The notes beneath the pieces are model-generated. The model saw nothing but the letters and a program-made list of their open reading frames with translations. It did no database searches and had not been told where the DNA came from. Below, one piece after another: positions 1 to 45,290 of a stretch of DNA of 54,294 bases. Position 1 is the first letter of the stretch; each line of letters begins with the position of its first letter. The DNA comes from a virus (lineage: Duplodnaviria; Caudoviricetes). The stretch spans positions 1 to 54,294 of IMG/VR virus record IMGVR_UViG_3300033153_010346. One strand, given 5' to 3'. A program made the position numbers and the translations under genes.

Positions 1-141
1 AAATCATGCTTTTGTTCGAATCACTTCATATAATAACCACTATCTTTATAGAGGACAAAGAGATTTCCTTATGACAACGATGACAAAAATATCTGCCGTT
101 ATGGCACTCTTCTTGGCGGTTACTCTAATGAACGTAGATGA

Positions 142-3112: not shown

Positions 3113-3587
3113 ACCCCCTGTAGCGCTTCATCTTAGGAAACCTTCTACAGGCTATGTTCAAGGCTATGCTACGGCCTCAACTATGGGTTATGCAGGGGCA
3201 ACTTCTATGGGTACGGTTACTGGGTTTCCTTATACAAATCCTTATCCAACATTGGAAGCGAAGTTAAGGGAGTTTAGAGCATTACGATTAGACTTAGCAA
3301 ATGTCCAAACTTCGGGTGAGCTGACAGATCGCATCTTTACTGATAGTACTTTCCATCAAAGAATTTGCTATCCAGTGGTTCAAGAAGAAACAGCTTTGAC
3401 TGAGACTCGTTACTGGTCGAAGCCACCTATTTTGGGTCCCGATGTAAATGAACTAAATTACATAGAGAACAATATGTTTGCTACTTTATTGATCCTTTTG
3501 GGTTATTTTGAGGATATGGAGTTGAAAAATAAGACAGTGTCGAAAATAATTGACAAAAAAGTAGGAGAAGCACTACAAAATATATGA
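3093..3587 (+). CDS. hypothetical protein (paralog family)
   Basis: AAGGA RBS; NNMFATLLILLGYFEDMELK resembles C-terminus of previous ORF. Confidence 0.65.
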   Translation: MGPYHIKPPVALHLRKPSTGYVQGYATASTMGYAGATSMGTVTGFPYTNPYPTLEAKLREFRALRLDLANVQTSGELTDRIFTDSTFHQRICYPVVQEETALTETRYWSKPPILGPDVNELNYIENNMFATLLILLGYFEDMELKNKTVSKIIDKKVGEALQNI

Positions 3588-4965: not shown

Positions 4966-5235
4966 ATGGGAATGAGGCAAAACGAGAAAACATTTGAGAA
5001 GTTGTTTGAAACCGAAACACGTTATCAAATATACCCTCGAAACTGGTACTGCTTTGACCTAGGTATAGGGGACCATACTCTACTAATGCCAAGAGTTTCC
5101 CATAACCCCTTATTTATGTTGTTTATCGCGGCATCGGCATTTAAAGGTTGGGGGAGGTTCATAAGCATGGGCTCAAACCTTACTAGAAAATTTGCCCTCG
5201 TATCGGCTCTGGCTTCTAACCAGGAGAAACCGTAA
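4966..5235 (+). CDS. small hypothetical protein (paralog family), 3' end overlaps atypical tRNA
   Basis: GAGG RBS; NPLFMLFIAAS. Confidence 0.5.
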   Translation: MGMRQNEKTFEKLFETETRYQIYPRNWYCFDLGIGDHTLLMPRVSHNPLFMLFIAASAFKGWGRFISMGSNLTRKFALVSALASNQEKP

Positions 5236-5273
5236 CTGGACACATGTGGGTTCGACTCCTACCGAGGGTACCA
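5194..5273 (+). tRNA. atypical tRNA-Arg(TCT)-like RNA lacking a normal D arm
   Basis: GCCCTCG/CGAGGGT-A-CCA, T arm GTGGG-TTCGACT-CCTAC, TCTGG-CTTCTAA-CCAGG arm only 7 nt after the acceptor strand. Confidence 0.75.
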
Positions 5274-5911: not shown

Positions 5912-5996
5912 GGAAGGTCGCATTGGTGTGCTTATCTGGTTTGAACCCAGTGATGTCCTCACGGATGTGGGGGTTCGACTCCCTCACCTTCCTCCA
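5912..5996 (+). tRNA. tRNA-Ser(TGA)
   Basis: loop TT-TGA-AC, long variable arm, compact D arm, U73, CCA. Confidence 0.85.
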
Positions 5997-6017
5997 AATC
6001 ACTCAGAGGGTATAAAT

Positions 6018-6242
6018 ATGAGTTTTTGTACATGTGATCTAAAAGTTGGTGTCACAACATGTGATGTTTGTCATGGAGATATAACTTTATCAAAACCGTG
6101 TATTTTTTGTGAAAACTCAGTAACAGTTGCAAGGGGTATCATGTTTCATGGTGTAGGCATAACAAAAGAATCTGCACAGACATATTTATGTTCCCATATT
6201 ACTTGTTACAAAAACTATAGTAAAAATCACTCAGAAGGTTGA
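6018..6242 (+). CDS. small Cys-rich (putative Zn-binding) protein
   Basis: GAGGG RBS, ATG 6018, CxC/CxxC motifs; stop lies inside next tRNA. Confidence 0.6.
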   Translation: MSFCTCDLKVGVTTCDVCHGDITLSKPCIFCENSVTVARGIMFHGVGITKESAQTYLCSHITCYKNYSKNHSEG

Positions 6243-6320
6243 CAGAGTGGCAATGTGCTGGGTTGCTAACCCAAGGCCGTCCTCACGGATGCATTGGTTC
6301 AATCCCAATACCTTCTGCCA
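6233..6320 (+). tRNA. tRNA-Ser(GCT)
   Basis: loop TT-GCT-AA, long variable arm, G73, CCA. Confidence 0.9.
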
Positions 6321-6335
6321 AATTAGGTATTAACT

Positions 6336-6743
6336 ATGTTGGAAAAACTCATGAAACGATGGAAAGAAATAATTTTCATATTTTCGGTTGTAGCTATAGC
6401 CTTTACATTTAATGGTTATCGGATAGAAGCTGAGGAAACTGCCACTAAGGTAAAGAAGTTTGAAGAGACATTTGACAAAATTGCGCAGATTGCAGATGAC
6501 CTCAAGAATCCAAATATATGGCTTCGAAATTATTTGGTAAATCATGGTGTAGATTCTGTAGTTGCGAAGTCTTGGAGTAATATCCCAAGAGGGCCTGTTA
6601 TGACTAAGAGTGATACAACGGTTAATATCCCCTACCTCGAAGCTGATGTTTTGCCAGACATAGGGGTCCAAAAGGTGCGCAAATCAAACGGCGCTACCAA
6701 AATCATGGACACCCTGTGGAATTTCTCAAAAAAGGCGAAATAA
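6336..6743 (+). CDS. N-terminally membrane-anchored hypothetical protein
   Basis: IIFIFSVVAIAFTF segment. Confidence 0.65.
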   Translation: MLEKLMKRWKEIIFIFSVVAIAFTFNGYRIEAEETATKVKKFEETFDKIAQIADDLKNPNIWLRNYLVNHGVDSVVAKSWSNIPRGPVMTKSDTTVNIPYLEADVLPDIGVQKVRKSNGATKIMDTLWNFSKKAK

Positions 6744-6747
6744 CTCA

Positions 6748-6774
6748 GAACCTTTTTCGATTTCCGGTGTTATA
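6748..6774 (+). promoter_or_regulatory. putative promoter class A (GAAC-N16-TGTTATA)
   Basis: intergenic, 13 nt before tRNA-Met. Confidence 0.65.
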
Positions 6775-6787
6775 CATATACAGATCA

Positions 6788-6863
6788 TGCGGGTAGCAGG
6801 GCTGGTGTCCTGGTCGGTCTCATAAGCCGATGGCGAAGGGTTCGATTCCCTTGCCCGCAACCA
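6788..6863 (+). tRNA. tRNA-Met(CAT), initiator-like
   Basis: TGCGGG...CCCGCAACCA ends and TCGGT-CTCATAA-GCCGA arm resemble tRNA-fMet. Confidence 0.88.
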
Positions 6864-6881
6864 AATTTAGAGGAGAAAGAA

Positions 6882-7208
6882 ATGGAAGCAACTGTAAACG
6901 AACTATTGGTATTGAAAAACACTTTACAAACCCGTAAAGCCGAAGTGCAGTCTTTGCTACGTTTGTGTGTTGCTCGTCGTGTTAACGAAGTAAGATACGA
7001 AGAAGAAGTTCGTAAAACTATTGATGAAAGCCGTTACGACCCTAATGATCTAGAGATTCGTAACACTGAGCTAAGCACTGCACTTTTCGAGCTAGATCGG
7101 GCAATCAAAGTGGCTAATGCCAAAACTGTTGTCAACGTAGAAAACGTAGACATTGCTACTTTGCTAGCACCTGTAAAACCCCGTCCTTGGGTTGAAACTC
7201 AAGAATAA
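6882..7208 (+). CDS. DUF6847/DIP1984-like coiled-coil protein
   Basis: N-terminal TVNELLVLKNTL and C-terminal ELDRAIKVANAKTVV pattern; GAGGAG RBS. Confidence 0.6.
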   Translation: MEATVNELLVLKNTLQTRKAEVQSLLRLCVARRVNEVRYEEEVRKTIDESRYDPNDLEIRNTELSTALFELDRAIKVANAKTVVNVENVDIATLLAPVKPRPWVETQE

Positions 7209-7217
7209 GGGGAGCAT

Positions 7218-7481
7218 GAGTAAATAGCTAGCCGAAAGCTTTGGCTGTTAACAGTTCGGGGCGAGTAGGCGAAAAGGAAAAAACTTGTTGAGTATATTGG
7301 TATCCCCAATATGACACTAGCTGTGTTGTTACAGCCTCCTTTAATAAGGTAAACTATAGTGCCCGTAAACCCATACTTAATAACCATTAAGGTTATTGGT
7401 AGTTGAATAAGACGGGTCAAGTCATGTTGTTTGTTTTTGTTAGTTGTTGTTCTTCAACAAATTTTTCTCTGCTATTTGCTC
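7218..7481 (+). ncRNA. putative structured ncRNA downstream of DUF6847-like gene
   Basis: 11-bp closing stem 7218-7228/7471-7481 with several nested helices; no credible ORF. Confidence 0.65.
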
Positions 7482-7488
7482 TTTATAT

Positions 7489-7561
7489 TCCTTCGTCGTC
7501 TAATTGGAGAGGACATTTGGCTACGAACCAAAAAATGCGGGTTCGATTCCTGTCGAGGGGA
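7489..7561 (+). tRNA. tRNA-Arg(ACG), no encoded CCA
   Basis: TTTGG-CTACGAA-CCAAA arm. Confidence 0.88.
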
Positions 7562-7580
7562 TTTACATAAAGGGTAATAT

Positions 7581-7892
7581 ATGACCACAGTAAATAAAAG
7601 GAAATATTGGCGGGAGATAAAGAGAAAGAATCGGGCGCGGAATCGTAAGTTTATTTTTGAATATCTAAGTGATCATCCATGTGTTGATTGCCCAGAAGCT
7701 GACCCAATAGTATTAGAATTTGATCACGTAAGAGGTGAAAAGCTAGATACAATAAGTAACCTAGCAGTAAGATACACAGCAAGTCTGAAAAAGATTAAAG
7801 AAGAGATAGAGAAGTGTGAGGTTCGATGTGCGAATTGTCACAGACGCAGACATGCTAAGTTGTTGAAAGAAAAGAATAGATCGATGGTGTAG
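7581..7892 (+). CDS. HNH endonuclease
   Basis: CVDC...FDHVRG...CEVRCANCHRRRH. Confidence 0.85.
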   Translation: MTTVNKRKYWREIKRKNRARNRKFIFEYLSDHPCVDCPEADPIVLEFDHVRGEKLDTISNLAVRYTASLKKIKEEIEKCEVRCANCHRRRHAKLLKEKNRSMV

Positions 7893-7951
7893 TGACAACA
7901 TCTCTGGCTCCAAACCAGAGGACCAGGGTTTGATTCCTTGTCGGTCTGCCA
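7878..7951 (+). tRNA. tRNA-Trp(CCA)
   Basis: loop CT-CCA-AA, G73, CCA; T-loop TTTGATT. Confidence 0.9.
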
Positions 7952-7955
7952 AATT

Positions 7956-8159
7956 ATGAGCTACATTGGACCTGAAGGTATTAGGAGAAAAAGTGTTACT
8001 CCTTTGAATGTAAAGAGATTAACCTTTTCCAAGTATATGTACAAAGCCGAGTGTGGTAGTTGTTGTACAGTCCACAAGTTTAATCCAAGTGGAATAACCC
8101 CCTCATTTGTGTGTGATATATGCGGGACAAAAAATGTAGCAAACTTTACAATCATGTAA
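7956..8159 (+). CDS. small Zn-ribbon protein
   Basis: CGSC...CDICG. Confidence 0.55.
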   Translation: MSYIGPEGIRRKSVTPLNVKRLTFSKYMYKAECGSCCTVHKFNPSGITPSFVCDICGTKNVANFTIM

Positions 8160-8469: not shown

Positions 8470-8473
8470 AGGA

Positions 8474-8708
8474 GTGGCGGGCGGAAAGACCGTGTAAAGG
8501 GTGAAAATCCCTACCGTCACACAGAATGGAACTGCGTTATGGACCAGAAAGACTGTGCATTGGGTGCAAATCCCTGCTATGACGCGGTTTATAAATGGTA
8601 GGTAGGAAAGACCGTGGACGGAGTTGACGTTTTAACTCGTATAACGGGTTAGTCAGAACTTGGCGATCCCAAGAAGTCTTCTGGAGTGGTGAGAATCCAC
8701 ACCTACCA
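8474..8708 (+). ncRNA. three tandem copies of a structured RNA motif (GAAAGAC hairpin + T-loop hairpin in a closing stem)
   Basis: copies 8474-8520, 8530-8589, 8596-8708 share RGAAAGACYGTG and GG-TGMRAAT-CC; closing stems differ in sequence but all pair. Confidence 0.75.
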
Positions 8709-8718
8709 CCGACAATTA

Positions 8719-8793
8719 GCTAGGATAGTGTTAGCAGTAGCACGTCTGGTTGTGGGCCAGAAAGGCTTGGTGCAAGTCCAGGTCCTAGTACCA
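8719..8793 (+). tRNA. tRNA-His(GTG), A73, no genomic G-1
   Basis: TCTGG-TTGTGGG-CCAGA arm, CCA; T-loop TGCAAGT. Confidence 0.85.
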
Positions 8794-38303: not shown

Positions 38304-38687
38304 ATGTGTGAAATACTTATAAGAGCAAAGGAGCATTCTTTGGTACTTGCAAAGGAGGCCGATTTGACAGAAAGACAAATAGAAGCTAGGAAAGTGATAC
38401 CTAGAAAAGGGTCCCCAATTGTGGTGCGTGGAGATGGGCATACTTGGGGTAAAAAAGAAGGACCACCCAACCACGTAATAGTAAAAATACCTGGTTTAGA
38501 TCCAGGGAAGGTACAGGATCTACTTATAGAAGATGACGCGAATGATGGTGAAGGGAAACAGATTTTGTACAACATACGTAAGTATAAAATAACTGGGACC
38601 CTTATGAATTCAATGATAGCTAGTGGTGGTATTATTACTATCTCTGAAAATAACCTACGCCAAGGTATTAAGCAATGGCAGATCTAA
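38304..38687 (+). CDS. hypothetical protein
   Basis: GAGG RBS before ATG 38304. Confidence 0.65.
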   Translation: MCEILIRAKEHSLVLAKEADLTERQIEARKVIPRKGSPIVVRGDGHTWGKKEGPPNHVIVKIPGLDPGKVQDLLIEDDANDGEGKQILYNIRKYKITGTLMNSMIASGGIITISENNLRQGIKQWQI

Positions 38688-41600
38688 CATTTGAAGTCAG
38701 ATTAGATGGTGCTGGAGACTATACTTCACTCAATGCAGCCTTGACTACCGAAGAAACTGATCTAACTACCGCTGAGGATACTCACACTTTTGAAATTACA
38801 GGTGCTTGGGGTACCCTAGAAGAGGGGCAAATAAACTCTAATGGTTATACCACCAATCCAACCTATTACTTGAAGGTTATTGCTCTTGGTACTGCTAGGC
38901 ATAATGGTTTTTGGACTGAGGGGGCTTATGCTGTTGGGTCGGGTTCAACTGGGCATAGTTTGATTATAAGTGGCGACCACACGGAAGTACACAATCTACA
39001 ATTTACCCATGACCAAACAGCTGTCGCGCAAAGAGCTGCCATGGTGTTTTCAAATGCCGGAGGCGGGATTATTGATGGGTGTATAATTCGAAAGCGTAAT
39101 GATTGTGATGGTGAAGCTTTTGGTATTTATTTGTGGCCGAGTGCTGGGAATACTAAATGTGTTGTATCTAACAACATAATATACGGATATAATAACTCCA
39201 CCGCTCCAAATAGCGCGATGTTTGTACACTGTACAGGGTCTGATGCTAATAGCGTTTATAATAACACCATTTTTGATTGTTACCGTGGTATGATGTCTTA
39301 CCCAGAGAAAGGGGTAATAGTTAATAACGTATTTGCTTCTTGCAAAATACCCACCGCCGCCGTTTTATTCAGCGATGGTACTAACTATAATGCTACAGAT
39401 ACTTTGTCAATAGGTTATACTAATACACCTACTAATGATGTGGTTGGTGCTACAATCATTTTTGCTTCTATCTTAGATAAAGACTTTCATATTAGACCTT
39501 GTCCTATGGTGGACACAGGATTAGACTTATCTGATGATAGTAGATATGCTTTTTCAAATGATATTGATGGTGCAACTAGATCTGGCAATTGGGATAGAGG
39601 TGCTGATGAATGGCTAACAGACCTAGTGTTCAGTGTCAGACTAGACGGTAGTGGAGACTATACAGCGTTGCATACAGCCATGGTCACTGAACTAAAGGAT
39701 TTAACAGGCAGTCTTCAAACACACACATTTGACATTACAGGTGCTTGGGGTACTGCGGAGGGTGGTGTCTCTGTTACTGGTTATACTACAAACCCAACTT
39801 ACTTTTTTACGGTTCGATGTTTGGGTACATCTTTACACACTGGCAAATGGACACCAGGAGCTTTTATAGCGGGAACTAACTATAACTCTAACTCTGTAAC
39901 ATTTTATAGCACTAATTATTGTGAAGTATATGGTTTACAGATTAGAATGGATAATGATGATGCATCATCTCGCGGCGGCCTTGTCCTGGGTAACAACGGT
40001 GGTGGCATTATAGAGAACTGTATTGTCAAAAAAACAGGAGCCTCAGTAAGTGGCTCAGAAGGTATTTATGTATGGCCCGACCCCGGCGGCGGCGGCACTG
40101 GTACAACTTATGCTAGGGTAGTTAATAACATAGTATACGATTTTATTGGTGGCGTTACTGATGTTGGTATTTTGGCGGCCAGCATTGCCGATGGTGGTTC
40201 TTATGTTTTGAACAACACAATCTTTAATTGTGGTATAGGTATAAGAGCGTTTAATCAAGATTGTATAGCTATAAATAATGTGCTTGCTTCTTGTTTGAAC
40301 CCCGCCGCCGACTATTCTTTTTCTACAGATTCAGACTATAACATTACTTCAAGTGTGTCTATGGGTTATAATCAAACGCCCCCAGCTAACGATATTCTCT
40401 CAGCTCCAATTGTTTTTGCTTCAATCGGTGGGGAGGATTTTAGATTGCGTCCGTCAGCTATCGCCAGCATTGGAATTGATACAGGGTTCAATCTATCAGC
40501 ATACCCAACTTACTCTTTCTCTGATACCATAACTGGGTCTATTAGGGGAACTGTTTGGGATAGAGGAGCGCACGAATGGACAAAGAATATTATATTCAGT
40601 ATCCGCAACGATGGTAGTGGGGATTATACAACATTAGCGGCAGGCGTTAATACCGAAGCTAAAGATATAACAGCCAGTCTTCAGTCACACACATATGAAA
40701 TTACGGGTACTTGGCCTGAGGCAGAAGGTGGTATTTATGATGCAGCATATCACGCTAGCCCAACTTACTTTTTGAAGTTTGTAGCTTTGGGCTCTTCTCG
40801 TCATACTGGGAAATGGACAGATAGTGCATATGCTTGTGGGTCTGCGGCAAGTAACGGTTTTAAATTTGGTGATCCTGGTTGGATATACGTTTATGGTTTG
40901 CAAGTAATGCTTGAGAGCGGAAGTACAGGAGCAAGATATGGTATAGAGATTCAGAATAATGCCGGAGGAGTTATCGACGGGTGTATTGTTAAGCTAGAAT
41001 TAGATCCCGGTGGTGCTAAGTATGGGATGATCATATACCCTGCGGGTGGCGGTACATTTTTTAATATCACCAACTCTGTTGTCTATGGCTTTAAAAACGA
41101 AGACCCTATTGCCGGGGGTATTTATGCTGGCTCAGGATCGGGTAAACCAGGGGCTGCATATATCTCTAACACTACGTTTTACAATTGTCATCAAGGTCTA
41201 TTTGTTGGTACAGACGATGTGATATTAAGAAACTGTGTGTTTGCGTCTGTTAAGATACCAGCAAGAACAGGGTATCATTTTCAGTATGCTAGCAACAACG
41301 CTACCGATACATTGGCTATGGGTTATACCAATACAGGTACCGAAGATATTCTTAGTGCTACTCTTGTTTTTGCATCAATATTAGATCGTGATTTTCATCT
41401 TATGGACGGGTCTGATTGTATTGGTGCTGGTACAGTTTTAGCAGCAGCTCCTACAATAGCTTTTACAAATGATATAGATGGTCAAACTAGGGTGGCCCCT
41501 TGGGATATTGGAGCTGATGCTTATTTTGCTATTCTTGGTGGAGGCACAATAAGTATTGTATCTCAACTAATTTGGGACACGATAGGTTACCAACTTATTT

Positions 41601-41815
41601 ACCCAACATCAACAGTAGGTGCGGGCGATTGGCTCCCCTCTGATACGACATTAGCCGGTGATACTAGTGATCAAAACATAACAACGTATGCGTATCTCGA
41701 TGATGCAGCTTCTGGCTCTGCCATGACTTTAAATTTTCAGCAACATACTAGACCTTATTCCAACTCACCAGGGGCAACCTTAACCATCACATGGCAACAA
41801 ACGGAGGGTGGATAA
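38675..41815 (+). CDS. large virion protein with three tandem parallel beta-helix modules
   Basis: three ~310-aa repeats starting F..R.DG.GDYT.L and ending WD.GA; NNII/NNTI ladders. Confidence 0.8.
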   Translation: MADLTFEVRLDGAGDYTSLNAALTTEETDLTTAEDTHTFEITGAWGTLEEGQINSNGYTTNPTYYLKVIALGTARHNGFWTEGAYAVGSGSTGHSLIISGDHTEVHNLQFTHDQTAVAQRAAMVFSNAGGGIIDGCIIRKRNDCDGEAFGIYLWPSAGNTKCVVSNNIIYGYNNSTAPNSAMFVHCTGSDANSVYNNTIFDCYRGMMSYPEKGVIVNNVFASCKIPTAAVLFSDGTNYNATDTLSIGYTNTPTNDVVGATIIFASILDKDFHIRPCPMVDTGLDLSDDSRYAFSNDIDGATRSGNWDRGADEWLTDLVFSVRLDGSGDYTALHTAMVTELKDLTGSLQTHTFDITGAWGTAEGGVSVTGYTTNPTYFFTVRCLGTSLHTGKWTPGAFIAGTNYNSNSVTFYSTNYCEVYGLQIRMDNDDASSRGGLVLGNNGGGIIENCIVKKTGASVSGSEGIYVWPDPGGGGTGTTYARVVNNIVYDFIGGVTDVGILAASIADGGSYVLNNTIFNCGIGIRAFNQDCIAINNVLASCLNPAADYSFSTDSDYNITSSVSMGYNQTPPANDILSAPIVFASIGGEDFRLRPSAIASIGIDTGFNLSAYPTYSFSDTITGSIRGTVWDRGAHEWTKNIIFSIRNDGSGDYTTLAAGVNTEAKDITASLQSHTYEITGTWPEAEGGIYDAAYHASPTYFLKFVALGSSRHTGKWTDSAYACGSAASNGFKFGDPGWIYVYGLQVMLESGSTGARYGIEIQNNAGGVIDGCIVKLELDPGGAKYGMIIYPAGGGTFFNITNSVVYGFKNEDPIAGGIYAGSGSGKPGAAYISNTTFYNCHQGLFVGTDDVILRNCVFASVKIPARTGYHFQYASNNATDTLAMGYTNTGTEDILSATLVFASILDRDFHLMDGSDCIGAGTVLAAAPTIAFTNDIDGQTRVAPWDIGADAYFAILGGGTISIVSQLIWDTIGYQLIYPTSTVGAGDWLPSDTTLAGDTSDQNITTYAYLDDAASGSAMTLNFQQHTRPYSNSPGATLTITWQQTEGG

Positions 41816-42150
41816 TGGATGAATATCCTTATAAAATAGTTGGGTGGAAAATATGGTATTGCAACGAGACCCTTGAAGAGTTTATGTTTACTAACAAAGA
41901 TGGTACATGGGCCGAAGCTCCTGATCAAAATGTACAAGTAGTAATGGCATATGCTGACAAACATGATGGCCAAGGAAGAGCCTGTCGTATGATTTTTAGG
42001 GCAGTTGATTATTACTGGTATAATGGTAAGGTGTTTGACAGTGGGGATGTTTTAACAGAGGCAACAGGCCCTGTGAAATATGGCAAGGAGATATTGTTTT
42101 CTAAATATGAAGAAATTGTTAATCATGCTATGGAAGACTACGAAATCTAA
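41815..42150 (+). CDS. hypothetical protein
   Basis: GGAGG RBS, TAATG coupling on both sides. Confidence 0.7.
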   Translation: MDEYPYKIVGWKIWYCNETLEEFMFTNKDGTWAEAPDQNVQVVMAYADKHDGQGRACRMIFRAVDYYWYNGKVFDSGDVLTEATGPVKYGKEILFSKYEEIVNHAMEDYEI

Positions 42151-45100
42151 TGGCTGTTTATTATCTCTCAAATACAAATTCTGATTTAACTGGTGGAGCT
42201 GATTTTAGTAAAGTTTTAGCTACCGTTACAGAGGCTACCAATACTTTACTTGTGACTGTAGGATCAGGAGCAACCGAAACCTCCTATGGGTTTACAGCAG
42301 TTGGTGACCCTAATAATCCTGACTGGGAAACAGGCGGGATAACAGTAGAGGTTAATGTTACTGTAGCTGATTCAAAAGTATTTATATCAGCGTCTGCTAG
42401 TAGGGTAACTGCTGCTGGGACGGTAGAAGAGACAACGTCGCCAACAAGTGAACAAGCCGCTTCCACCACCGCCGTTTACACTTTTAATATTACATCTATG
42501 GATTGGTCGGCTGGGTCTGCTACGGACAGAATAAGAGTTAACTACATTTTTAGAGAGTCTAATGCTCACGGTGACAGAAGCATTACTATACAGTTTGGCG
42601 ATACTAATACCGAAGTAACCACTTCTATAACAAAACCTGTCCCAGCAGGTCCAGTTGGTGATTCTATACAAACGGTTTGGAATCTTAACAAGCTAACTAC
42701 GGATACATCCCAGTTAATCTGGGATGTTCATGTACCCGTTAATGATACTTCACAATTTATTTGGGATGCTAAAAACACGGTGTCAAGGGACCCTCAACCA
42801 GCATTTATTTGGAATTTACAGGCTCATGTCACGGACACTGTACAACCGATTTGGAATGTAGGGAAAGCAGTAATTGATAGTATTCAAGTTATTTGGGATG
42901 TTAAGGCTACAGTGACAGATGCTGTCCAATTTGTTTGGAATTTAACGTCTCTTGTAACCAACACACCCCAATTTGTATGGAGTGTTGGTCAAGCAATAAC
43001 TGATTCTATTCAGTACATTTGGAATGTTTCTTCAACTGTTGCAGTAAGTAAACTAAACGATTTAGTTTGGGGTGTTAAAACTAATGCAACAGATGTTATG
43101 CAGGGTGTATGGGATGTAAAGACATTCGTTAATAACACATCCCAACTAGTATGGGATGTAAAACAGGCAGCTAGTGATACAATACAGGCTGTTTGGGATG
43201 TAGGTAAAGCAATTTCAAATACTGTGCAGGGTATTTGGAATGTTAGGTCTATCTCGACAGACACTGTACAATTTATTTGGCACGTAGATGCACTTCCTTC
43301 TAGTACTTGTGACATCACAATATTACAAGATTCAACAACCATTGCTACTTTTTACAACCAAGTTATCCCTACCATTTCAACTGCAACTGAATTTGGGTTA
43401 ACTGAAGCTCAACTTGATTTAATCAATTACAACGGCGTACTAGCAACATTACAGATAGCAGTTACCGGTAATATTTCAGATGGGACTGGGGTAACACAGA
43501 TTGAAGTTCAAGAGATAGTATTAAGGCTTCCCTACCCAATAGGCGCTCTTACTGCTGCTAAGTTGGTACAATTAGTGTGGAATCTCCAAGCAGGTGTATT
43601 GGATTCAGCTCAGTTAGTTTGGAATGCTAAAGAAATCACAGCAGATTCGTCCCAGTTTATTTGGGACGTTAAAACAGTTGTATCCAAAGCTAGTCAAAAA
43701 ATATGGAATGTAAAAGAACTAGTAACGAAGGCCTCACAAAAAATATGGAATGTTCGTAAAGCTATAACAGATACTTCTCAATTGGTTTGGAATGTTAAAC
43801 AGGCCGTGACTGATACCTCTAAACTGGTTTGGAATGTGCTGGTTACAGGTGCAGCCCAAGCAGGGATACAGTTTGTTTGGAATTTGAAACAAACCGCTGG
43901 TAATACATCACAGTTGGTCTGGAATGTTAAAGAGCTGTTAACAGACACAACTCAGTTTATTTGGAATGCCAAACAATTAATCTCTGATTCATCTCAATAT
44001 ATTTGGAACATTAAGAAGCTTGCTACTGGTAGTTCGCAATTAATTTGGGATGTAAAACAAGCAGTTATCGACAGCAGCCAGTTGGTTTGGAATGTTAAAT
44101 CACTTGTATCAGACACAGTCCAGGGAATATGGAATGTTCGAGAAGCAATTACTAACACCATCCAAGCCGTATGGAATATTCGAAAAGCAATTACTGATAC
44201 GTCTAAATTTATTTGGAATGTACTTGTAACAGGGCAATTACAGATAGGTACGCAGTTTGTTTGGAATGTCAAAAAGGCCATTAGTGATAGTTCACAGCTA
44301 AAATGGAACATCAAAGGTTTAGTTTCTAGTACTTCACAGTATATTTGGAATATAAAGAAGCTGGTAACTGGTTCTACTCAAGTTGTTTGGAATATTAAGA
44401 AGGCCCTAGCAGATGCATCCCAGTTTGTTTGGCATGTGTTAGTAACCGGTCAAGTACAAGTAGGTACTCAGTTTATTTGGGGTGTAAAGCAAACAACAAC
44501 AGCTCTTTCACAACTTAAATGGAATGTAAAAGGCTTAATATCAGACGCTATACAGTATATCTGGAACATAAAACAGACAGCAGGTAATTCTACACAGCTA
44601 GTTTGGAATCTTAGAAAAGCCATTGTTGATGCAGCAAAGCTAGTCTGGGATGTAGTTGCTGCCACGGGGGCTGTTGCCAAAGTGGTACAGGTAGTTTGGA
44701 ATACTAAGGCTACAGTTTCTGATTCAACACAAATAATTTGGGATATTCGAAAAATTATGTCAGATAGTGTCCAATATTTGTGGAAAATCAAGAAAATAAC
44801 TAGTAACGAGAGTAATTTACTCTGGAGCATAAAAGAAAGCATACAAAATAACCCTCAATTTATCTGGAATGTAAAACAGGTGTTTGGGGATTCGTCTCAG
44901 TTTGCTTGGAATGTTAAGCTTACTCTAGGGAATACAGTCCAGAACGTTTGGAATGTACGACAGCTTATAAGCAATACGAGTCAGTTTGTATGGCATGTAA
45001 CTGGCCCTCTTAAAGCCTCGCTGCAGGCTATTTGGGATGTCAAACAGGTTCTAACTGACTCAACGACAATACGTTGGAACGTTTTAAGCCCACTTAGCTC

Positions 45101-45290
45101 CGCTGTCGAGTTGGTATGGAGCTTGGCCGGATCAACCAGAAATTCAACGCAGTTAATTTGGAACACATTATCACTTATCCCACCCGCTGTGTTGATGTCT
45201 ATTCGGAACATTGTATTTCGATCAGAGTCTACCGTTGATAATGTTGATTTGAAGAAAAATAATACCATAGATGACGAAACAATTATCTAA
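42150..45290 (+). CDS. Trp-repeat fibre-like virion protein
   Basis: about 53 repeats of ~14 aa, consensus D-S/T-x-Q-F/L-V/I-W-N/D-V-K. Confidence 0.8.
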   Translation: MAVYYLSNTNSDLTGGADFSKVLATVTEATNTLLVTVGSGATETSYGFTAVGDPNNPDWETGGITVEVNVTVADSKVFISASASRVTAAGTVEETTSPTSEQAASTTAVYTFNITSMDWSAGSATDRIRVNYIFRESNAHGDRSITIQFGDTNTEVTTSITKPVPAGPVGDSIQTVWNLNKLTTDTSQLIWDVHVPVNDTSQFIWDAKNTVSRDPQPAFIWNLQAHVTDTVQPIWNVGKAVIDSIQVIWDVKATVTDAVQFVWNLTSLVTNTPQFVWSVGQAITDSIQYIWNVSSTVAVSKLNDLVWGVKTNATDVMQGVWDVKTFVNNTSQLVWDVKQAASDTIQAVWDVGKAISNTVQGIWNVRSISTDTVQFIWHVDALPSSTCDITILQDSTTIATFYNQVIPTISTATEFGLTEAQLDLINYNGVLATLQIAVTGNISDGTGVTQIEVQEIVLRLPYPIGALTAAKLVQLVWNLQAGVLDSAQLVWNAKEITADSSQFIWDVKTVVSKASQKIWNVKELVTKASQKIWNVRKAITDTSQLVWNVKQAVTDTSKLVWNVLVTGAAQAGIQFVWNLKQTAGNTSQLVWNVKELLTDTTQFIWNAKQLISDSSQYIWNIKKLATGSSQLIWDVKQAVIDSSQLVWNVKSLVSDTVQGIWNVREAITNTIQAVWNIRKAITDTSKFIWNVLVTGQLQIGTQFVWNVKKAISDSSQLKWNIKGLVSSTSQYIWNIKKLVTGSTQVVWNIKKALADASQFVWHVLVTGQVQVGTQFIWGVKQTTTALSQLKWNVKGLISDAIQYIWNIKQTAGNSTQLVWNLRKAIVDAAKLVWDVVAATGAVAKVVQVVWNTKATVSDSTQIIWDIRKIMSDSVQYLWKIKKITSNESNLLWSIKESIQNNPQFIWNVKQVFGDSSQFAWNVKLTLGNTVQNVWNVRQLISNTSQFVWHVTGPLKASLQAIWDVKQVLTDSTTIRWNVLSPLSSAVELVWSLAGSTRNSTQLIWNTLSLIPPAVLMSIRNIVFRSESTVDNVDLKKNNTIDDETII

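Follow-up and report, generated by a model that had tools for sequence, protein, structure and literature searches.

The 54,294-nt virus record IMGVR_UViG_3300033153_010346 of IMG/VR (hereafter the window, meaning the whole stretch of DNA that was analyzed) carries on its + strand, between two genes of a tRNA cluster, a gene for a 108-residue DUF6847/DIP1984-like protein, followed by a structured noncoding RNA that begins 10 nt past the stop codon. The stretch behind this gene and the corresponding stretches behind its relatives represent a genuine, uncatalogued RNA feature. The linkage of the gene and the RNA is well supported, and the nested helices A and B of the RNA covary between loci. 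We tentatively suggest that the two products form a ribonucleoprotein (RNP), in which a protein dimer would sit on UUGUU repeats displayed by the RNA.

The open reading frame (ORF) at positions 6882-7208 is a genuine, conserved gene. The window protein has 6 homologs with 53-69% sequence identity and invariant blocks, and a full HMMER search retrieves a family of 45 cluster representatives at E ≤ 1e-3, mostly of 92-112 aa. The family alignment (A2) consists of 49 sequences and omits two proteins because of their length, P0015 (5,520 aa) and P0025 (1,072 aa), as well as the 74-aa fragment P0037. Sub-alignment A4 of the ~96-aa relatives led to 15 IMG/VR loci and to two GTDB contigs from metagenome-assembled genomes (MAGs) of a Methanosarcinales archaeon and of Gallionella. 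Two pairs of these loci are identical, which leaves 15 distinct loci (13 from IMG/VR and 2 from MAGs), all of them distant homologs. Searches of IMG/VR and the JGI metagenomes with the window protein and the close alignments A1 and A3 gave no confirmed loci. There was likewise no match, T4 included, in tblastn searches of 50,697 phage records with the proteins of the window, P0038, P0016, L012, and L016, nor any match of the cassette region to these records in blastn.

In all 15 loci, the stretch 3' of the stop codon, on the same strand as the gene, is spanned by no + strand ORF of at least 45 aa. Typically, 170-380 nt separate the stop codon from the next large + strand ORF, and in L006, L013, and L018, this interval contains short + strand ORFs of 45-69 aa. 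In every locus, the onset of the RNA element lies 5-25 nt past the stop codon. The neighbors vary from locus to locus and include an exonuclease, an SbcD-like nuclease, a clamp loader, a glycosyltransferase, a minor tail protein, and a tRNA cluster. With the window counted, the ORF-poor stretch is found beside unrelated neighbors in 16 of 16 loci, which indicates that the pair travels as a unit, and so tight and ordered a linkage argues that the gene and the RNA form one functional unit. The module is carried by phage contigs ranging from 13 to 202 kb in length, as well as by MAG contigs of archaeal and bacterial origin. At the gathering score, the stretches of the 15 relatives match nothing in Rfam except tRNAs, and positions 7209-7487 of the window match no family of Rfam 15 at E ≤ 1.

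Fold and repeat tracts of the RNA

In the window, the stop codon of the gene is separated from the downstream tRNA-Arg by a 279-nt ORF-free stretch (7209-7487), in which the only ORFs are one of 73 aa on the - strand and one of 55 aa that runs into the tRNA. This agrees with the first-pass annotation of the sequence, which had seen no credible ORF in this region. Folding recovers all the pairings and hairpins that this annotation had named, each at the position given there, and the purine-rich segment and the TGTT/AGTT tract that it had pointed out are present at 7268-7284 and 7425-7451, respectively. The closing helix P1, the helix P1b, and the GCCCGT/ACGGGT helix (stem A) are common to the minimum free energy (MFE), centroid, and maximum expected accuracy (MEA) folds. 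An A5/U5 extension of P1b is separated from it by a mismatch. Hairpins form at 7229-7247, 7293-7313, 7320-7335, 7338-7349, and 7377-7399. The fold z-score is -2.3 for the whole stretch 7209-7487, and the core 7218-7481 reaches -3.6 (+ strand) and -4.4 (- strand), compared to -1.9 to -2.9 for the neighboring ORFs. With the energy only modestly beyond that of shuffled sequences, single-sequence folding is suggestive rather than decisive.

The most conspicuous primary-sequence feature of this RNA is a G/U-rich tract, T3, which Tandem Repeats Finder (TRF) describes as a 27-nt tract with a period of 10 and 2.7 copies. T3 is left single stranded by the centroid and MEA folds, and part of it is paired in the MFE fold. 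Over 273 nt at this site, TTGTT occurs 7 times on the + strand and once on the - strand, which makes the site the densest + strand spot for this word across the 54 kb. A second TTGTT cluster, at 631-780, was dropped, as it lies inside an ORF. A search of sequencing runs listed one DNA run, with a 0.10 share of words, and no RNA runs. From DNA run X1 comes a near-identical 181-nt contig over 7392-7572, the other cover consisting of tRNA-like pieces of other organisms. This contig shows four differences, all of them in T3 and together shifting the tract toward the T3 of the family, as seen in L017 and L009; with a contig depth of 2.6, this is weak evidence.

The relatives share a common plan: a segment a few bases 3' of the stop codon forms base pairs with the distal end of the stretch, and several UUGUU-type tracts are present. 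The pairing was assessed in a swap test that scored, for all pairs among the 16 loci, the highest-scoring ungapped helix that the first 45 nt past the stop codon can form with nt 101-300; this score was used in place of swapped duplexfold energies, which were too noisy (self, -28.9; cross, -23.1; standard deviation [sd], 4.6). The self mean of 26.1 was not attained in any of 20,000 permutations, the cross mean being 19.0 (sd, 2.9). For nine of the 16 loci, including the window, the self pair ranked first in both row and column.

The second shared property is the strand-specific enrichment of the repeat. TTGTT is found 63 times in 3,250 nt of the RNA + strand (19.4 per kb), compared to 164 times in 86,555 nt of the flanks (1.9 per kb) and to 1.8 per kb on the strand opposite to the RNA. 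The TTG-TTG distances peak at 3, 7, 10, 17, and 20 nt, at 5 to 19 times the shuffled counts. A GAAAAG-like purine run is seen in 9 of the 16 5' halves, compared to 4.4 ± 1.7 in shuffles. The specific element GGCGAAAAG, which the first-pass annotation had associated with such genes, is absent from all 15 relatives, so that only this looser purine run recurs.

The common core of the RNA is ordered as follows: the 5' arm of stem B, tract T1, the 5' arm of stem A, a variable loop that ends in the bipartite tract T2, the 3' arm of stem A, an A-rich linker, the 3' arm of stem B, tract T3, and the closing arms. Stem A was evaluated by anchoring on the T2 column of a MAFFT alignment of 13 loci, with L012 and L016 omitted and the window, misplaced by MAFFT, left out as well. 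The bases after T2 pair with the upstream segment of their own locus with a mean score of 14.8, versus 10.7 (sd, 2.6) in cross-comparisons, and the self score was reached in none of 20,000 permutations. A direct MAFFT and RNAalifold analysis of the 16 RNAs yielded no pairs. A covariance model built from a single sequence, that of L017 (R1), found the correct site in 9 other loci, with E < 0.01 in only 3 of them, and the R1 search did not detect the window RNA. A model built from four sequences (R2) found the correct site at E ≤ 5 in 11 of the 15 loci, the four training loci counted. In the R2 alignment of its top 8 matches, each of them located where expected, stems A and B pair in 91.3% of the cells, compared to 51.7% in shuffled controls and 35-49% with the partners slid; the fitting of this alignment to the model is in itself favorable to pairing. 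Among these 8 RNAs, 10 of 10 pairs in stems A and B show changes on both sides. Searched against five whole contigs, R2 gave one match in each of three, always at the gene-linked site, and none in the other two. Homologous genes with no conserved, covarying RNA downstream, the outcome that had been named in advance as fatal to a gene-RNA pair, were not what these loci held: in the 15 loci, the RNA is conserved, strand specific, and covarying.

None of the other RNAs is as long as that of the window, which measures 264 nt from P1 to P1 and has extra hairpins between stems B and A. The R2 match of the window RNA, at 7350-7453, scores 16.6 bits (E = 1.4; rank 3 among the window matches); the R2 alignment puts stem A, T2, and T3 of the window at the places where they had been read by eye. 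Given the weak score, the membership of the window RNA in this group rests on its position and strand, its P1 swap rank, its TTGTT density, and the architecture read by eye. Directly behind the gene, and on its strand, the window has an ORF-poor stretch, and it shows a locus-specific P1 and a strand-specific TTGTT excess with a 3' tract before the closing arms. The features of the window are listed in Table 1.

Table 1. Features of the gene-RNA cassette and the flanking tRNA genes (window coordinates)
Feature	Positions	Strand	Basis
Structured noncoding RNA, 264 nt, 3' untranslated region (UTR) of the gene	7218-7481	+	Fold z-scores, helix coordinates, shared architecture in 15 loci
5' arm of the closing helix P1 (11 bp, including one G-U pair, formed with 7471-7481)	7218-7228	+	First in row and column of the swap test
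P1, 3' arm	7471-7481	+	Folds
Purine-rich run	7268-7284	+	Loosely recurrent in relatives; exact word not conserved
P1b, 5' arm; pairs with 7453-7460	7285-7292	+	MFE, centroid, and MEA folds
P1b, 3' arm	7453-7460	+	Folds
Stem B, 5' arm (ATGAC); pairs with 7421-7425 (GTCAT)	7311-7315	+	Equivalent helix covaries in relatives
Stem B, 3' arm	7421-7425	+	Folds
Hairpin with G/U loop (UUGU), at the position of tract T1 of the relatives	7320-7335	+	Folds, comparison with relatives
Stem A, 5' arm (GCCCGT); pairs with 7412-7417 (ACGGGT)	7361-7366	+	Equivalent helix covaries in relatives; R2 alignment
Stem A, 3' arm	7412-7417	+	Folds
Degenerate T2 tract (UUAUUG..GUUGAA), just 5' of the stem A 3' arm	7391-7411	+	R2 alignment
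T3, G/U-rich repeat tract	7425-7452	+	TRF, TTGTT counts, folds
Gene for a 108-aa DUF6847/DIP1984-like helix/beta-hairpin/helix protein with C-terminal PVKPRPW tail	6882-7208	+	ORF, AGGAG Shine-Dalgarno sequence, homologs, AlphaFold2 model
tRNA-Met (CAU)	6788-6863	+	ARAGORN; Rfam clan match
tRNA-Arg (ACG)	7488-7562	+	ARAGORN; Rfam

Two of the relatives' loci deserve mention for other reasons. In L003, a perfect TTGACA-17-TATAAT promoter is found at ~3530-3565, after the RNA and before the next gene, so that the RNA there is part of the upstream transcript. In L012, a complete 202-kb phage contig, the canonical tRNA T-arm word GGTTCGATTCC lies inside the RNA fold (3294+100..130), and ARAGORN makes no tRNA call at this word.

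The protein and its predicted dimer

The AlphaFold2 model of the window protein (predicted local distance difference test [pLDDT], 87.3) consists of a helix at residues 5-29, a beta-hairpin at 33-48, and a second helix at 54-80. Its assignment to DUF6847/DIP1984 in the first-pass annotation holds only in a loose sense. The window protein itself matches no Pfam family, PF20935 included (E ≤ 1), no NCBIfam model at E ≤ 10, and no PHROG family. However, PF20935 is matched weakly by 11 of the 49 family members (best E, 1e-4), and a protein atlas places the window protein beside DUF6847 clusters, mostly viral, with a score of 0.94. The model also resembles the fold of 3kdq, the crystal structure of the DIP1984 (DUF6847) protein from Corynebacterium diphtheriae, with a Foldseek probability of 0.99, a template modeling (TM) score of 0.53, and an E value of 0.35, and with a VIA-align Z score of 8.0 and a root mean square deviation (rmsd) of 2.3 over 79 residues. 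Unrelated helical hairpins, such as prefoldin beta, the arm of seryl-tRNA synthetase, and Tsi2, score alike, so that a Z of 8 falls in the generic helical-hairpin range, and a sequence search with the family profile does not retrieve 3kdq. The fold match, the many hairpins with equal scores, and the lack of a sequence match together mean that “DUF6847/DIP1984-like” denotes a distant relative and not membership. Of the 152 residues of the 3kdq chain, the match takes in 72-150 only, which makes the phage protein the counterpart of the C-terminal half of that chain. Prefoldin beta subunits have the same helix/beta-hairpin/helix arrangement (VIA-align Z, 7.2-7.5; Foldseek probability, 0.85-0.98) but show no sequence relation, and the assembly modeled for the phage protein is a dimer with swapped C-terminal tails rather than a beta-barrel hexamer. 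A small terminase was considered and rejected: TerS of phage P22 is the top Foldseek row but has a TM score of 0.29 and an rmsd of 16, and the large terminase gene is 25 kb away.

The window protein probably forms a symmetric homodimer, to judge from structure prediction. The homodimer model has a score of 0.54, compared to 0.00 for the best of three controls, and passes the mark applied; among proteins of solved structure, 20 of 30 one-chain pairs and 1 of 23 single chains attained this mark. The dimer runs agree in at least 96% of the contacts, with a partner pLDDT of at least 82, and the modeled interface is symmetric, with the C-terminal tails swapped.

A candidate ribonucleoprotein and the alternatives

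These observations suggest a module of two parts, a helical-hairpin protein and a structured RNA of ~265 nt that would form the 3' UTR of its own mRNA. The nested helices P1, P1b, stem B, and stem A would serve as a scaffold, clamped so as to protect the RNA and displaying two or three G/U-rich tracts with UUGUU units spaced 3, 7, and 10 nt apart. It is quite possible that the dimeric protein binds the bipartite UUGUU tracts of this 3'-UTR-derived RNA, with one dimer per bipartite tract, that is, per two UUGUU half-sites ~10 nt apart. The gene product would thereby assemble on the tail of its own transcript into a stable RNP, which implies that the RNA is transcribed and persists in the cell. 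In this phage, the unit would be excised from a polycistronic tRNA-cluster transcript, with the 3' processing of tRNA-Met setting the 5' end 18 nt before the start codon and the RNase P cut at the 5' end of tRNA-Arg leaving the 3' end of the RNA 6 nt past P1. Release by tRNA processing, which the first-pass annotation had envisaged, would follow from established tRNA biology and is plausible in the window; it is not general, since tRNAs are nearby in only 2 of the 15 relatives (L012 and L014). In some relatives, termination may take its place, as suggested by a terminator-like U-run that, as read from the sequence, follows the 3' arm of P1 in L003, L013, L015, and L016.

Several results weigh against this model. 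In the P1 swap test, 4 of the 16 loci (L007, L009, L012, and L016) were unremarkable. R2 misses L005, L012, L014, and L018 and has five matches elsewhere at E ≤ 5; its score for the window RNA is weak, and the 8-RNA alignment was fitted to the structure model. In predicted ensembles, UUGUU is only slightly more exposed than the rest of the RNA, with an unpaired probability of 0.44 versus 0.36 at other positions. On the protein side, the family is acidic (median isoelectric point, 5.9; above 8 in only 2 of the 49 members), which is unusual for an RNA binder, and the conserved residues are mostly in the modeled dimer interface, where they may be structural instead of contacting RNA. The idea of a protein and its cognate RNA acting together, put forward in the first-pass annotation, is thus well supported as regards the linkage, and it is the physical partnership that we infer, in spite of the acidic family.

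Two other readings keep the RNA fold and dispense with a specific RNP. The RNA alone might act as a decoy, sponge, or guide, with UUGUU capturing a host RNA-binding protein or pairing with AACAA in a host RNA, and the protein being merely co-expressed or a chaperone. Motif tracts on a covarying scaffold are what sponge RNAs have, and the acidity of the protein and the location of its conserved residues are in line with this; however, independent functions need no tight linkage, so the invariable order of gene and RNA, side by side on one strand amid unrelated neighbors in all 16 loci, counts against it, as does the lack of any RNA copy apart from the gene in the five whole contigs searched with R2. 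We consider such a role unlikely. Alternatively, the structure could be a cis-acting 3' UTR element with no free RNA: a stabilizer against 3' exonucleases, a platform for termination or processing, or an autoregulatory operator. Its onset so close behind the stop codon in all loci and the U-runs after P1 would fit this, and PMC3014915 offers a precedent in T4 gp32, for which a structured nucleation site and repeated A/U words serve autoregulation. Yet several helices folded over 130-270 nt, together with three conserved tracts, go far beyond what a stabilizer or a terminator needs, the window has no terminator-like site in 6200-8000, and T3 shows no preferred pairing to the translation start of its gene (self, -18.8; internal window, -19.2; cross, -17.9), which makes a purely cis-acting role rather improbable.

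Far less probable still are explanations of a different kind. A protein gene and a repeat-bearing RNA in one transcript, moving between genomes, recall type III toxin-antitoxin or abortive infection systems, in which the RNA neutralizes the protein, and the first-pass annotation had mentioned a toxin-antitoxin-like pair. Against this, the RNA is located downstream of the gene rather than upstream and behind a terminator, no long tandem-repeat RNA precedes the gene, the sole tandem repeat being the 27-nt tract with a period of 10, the protein is a helical hairpin with no match to a nuclease-like fold, no PADLOC family is common to more than 1 of the 49 members, and the module resides in lytic-type phage genomes; we regard this reading as very doubtful. 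It is just as hard to credit that the stretch acts at the DNA level, as an origin, an iteron array, or a packaging site, with TTGTT at 10 bp marking duplex protein-binding sites. The 10-nt spacing does equal a helical turn of DNA, and several relatives lie among replication genes, but long-range helices spanning 127-264 nt covary along with the nested ones, which argues for a single-stranded fold; in addition, the motif is strictly strand specific relative to the gene, and the element always follows the same small gene, which is not a replication initiator.

Taken as an RNP, the module would be a widespread and so far uncatalogued phage particle, also present on archaeal and bacterial MAG contigs, in which a DUF6847/DIP1984-like dimer occupies UUGUU sites on a covarying scaffold RNA at the 3' tail of its message, the whole being self-contained and mobile; we advance this broader reading tentatively, as one possibility that is open to doubt. 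A compact (~0.6 kb), self-contained unit that recurs beside unrelated genes has probably been selected for an autonomous role, of which host takeover, protection, or the handling of RNA or DNA would be examples. If true, this would provide the first functional handle on a domain family of which a structure (3kdq) has been available since 2009 and would add a new class of structured RNA to phage biology.

The tRNA cluster and comparison with known systems

By CheckV estimate, the record is 46% complete. Its genes include those for a DNA polymerase, a terminase, and portal and tail proteins; the polymerase is at most 31% identical to any counterpart in the 50,697 phage records, which indicates an uncultured phage far from the known ones. 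Between 3613 and 12682, the + strand carries 23 tRNA genes called by ARAGORN, and Rfam contributes two further, weaker tRNA matches. In line with the first-pass annotation, which had placed it between two tRNAs, the cassette lies within this cluster, with tRNA-Met upstream, 18 nt from the start of the ORF, and tRNA-Arg downstream. The class A promoter that was said to precede it could not be confirmed: positions 6200-8000 contain no sigma-70-like promoter site on the + strand and no terminator-like site, which makes a polycistronic transcript plausible.

An HNH endonuclease gene (7581-7892; phrog_2255, E = 2.9e-26) is located between tRNA-Arg and tRNA-Trp, paralleling T4, in which the homing endonuclease gene segB is inside the tRNA cluster and adjoins tRNA-Arg. 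The cluster contains a second ORF-free stretch, of 249 nt, at 8470-8718 (fold z, -2.6 on the + strand), which adjoins a tRNA found only by Rfam (8719-8790; 43.7 bits) and in which T-arm-like words of the GGTG-AAATCC type appear three times, perhaps as parts of degenerate or unusual tRNA-like genes. A weak Rfam tRNA match at 5194-5270 (31.6 bits, barely over the gathering score) has no ARAGORN call. A contig of run X1 joins 5995 to 6224, omitting 228 nt between two tRNA-Ser genes. The omitted stretch includes the greater part of a small cysteine-rich ORF (ORF 5928-6242, taken from its ATG), which is therefore an insertion or deletion between near-identical strains. Outside the cluster, two 1,046-aa ORFs (38675-41815 and 42150-45290) lie nearly in tandem, and only the second has tail-protein PHROG matches.

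Literature searches on DUF6847, DIP1984, 3kdq, a UUGUU phage noncoding RNA, and a GU-rich phage RNA with a coiled-coil protein retrieved nothing relevant. Oligomeric proteins that bind repeats in RNA are known from other systems: TRAP binds (G/U)AG, HutP binds UAG, and CsrA binds the GGA motifs of CsrB. As in these, the RNA described here carries regularly spaced short words in single-stranded stretches and has a presumed symmetric-oligomer partner. It differs in the word itself (UUGUU), in the 3-, 7-, and 10-nt spacing, in the covarying scaffold, in the protein fold, and in its location in the 3' UTR of the partner gene, and the binding proposed here is predicted.

Closer to phages, the T4 proteins gp32 and RegA recognize unstructured A/U- or U/G-rich words beside a structured nucleation element, and the RegA consensus obtained by systematic evolution of ligands by exponential enrichment (SELEX) includes UUGUU, according to PMC3014915. 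The regA gene follows clamp-loader genes, and the homolog in L014 likewise stands behind a clamp-loader gene. However, the operators of gp32 and RegA are in 5' leaders, over ribosome-binding sites, whereas the RNA described here is 3' of its gene, and the proteins are unrelated, the window protein having no RegA match in Pfam or PHROGs. In its location, the RNA is reminiscent of rnaC and rnaD of T4, stable RNAs of the tRNA gene cluster whose roles are given as unknown in the same source (PMC3014915). In both phages, a homing endonuclease gene lies near a stable (in the window, putatively so) non-tRNA RNA that is encoded in the tRNA cluster beside tRNA-Arg. UUGUU tracts are missing from the T4 RNAs, as is any R2 match (L019 2909-3172), so the two cases are analogous in location only. 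If the model is correct, some phage tRNA clusters carry genes for non-tRNA stable RNAs that have protein partners, which would bear on the role of the tRNA-cluster RNAs of T4.

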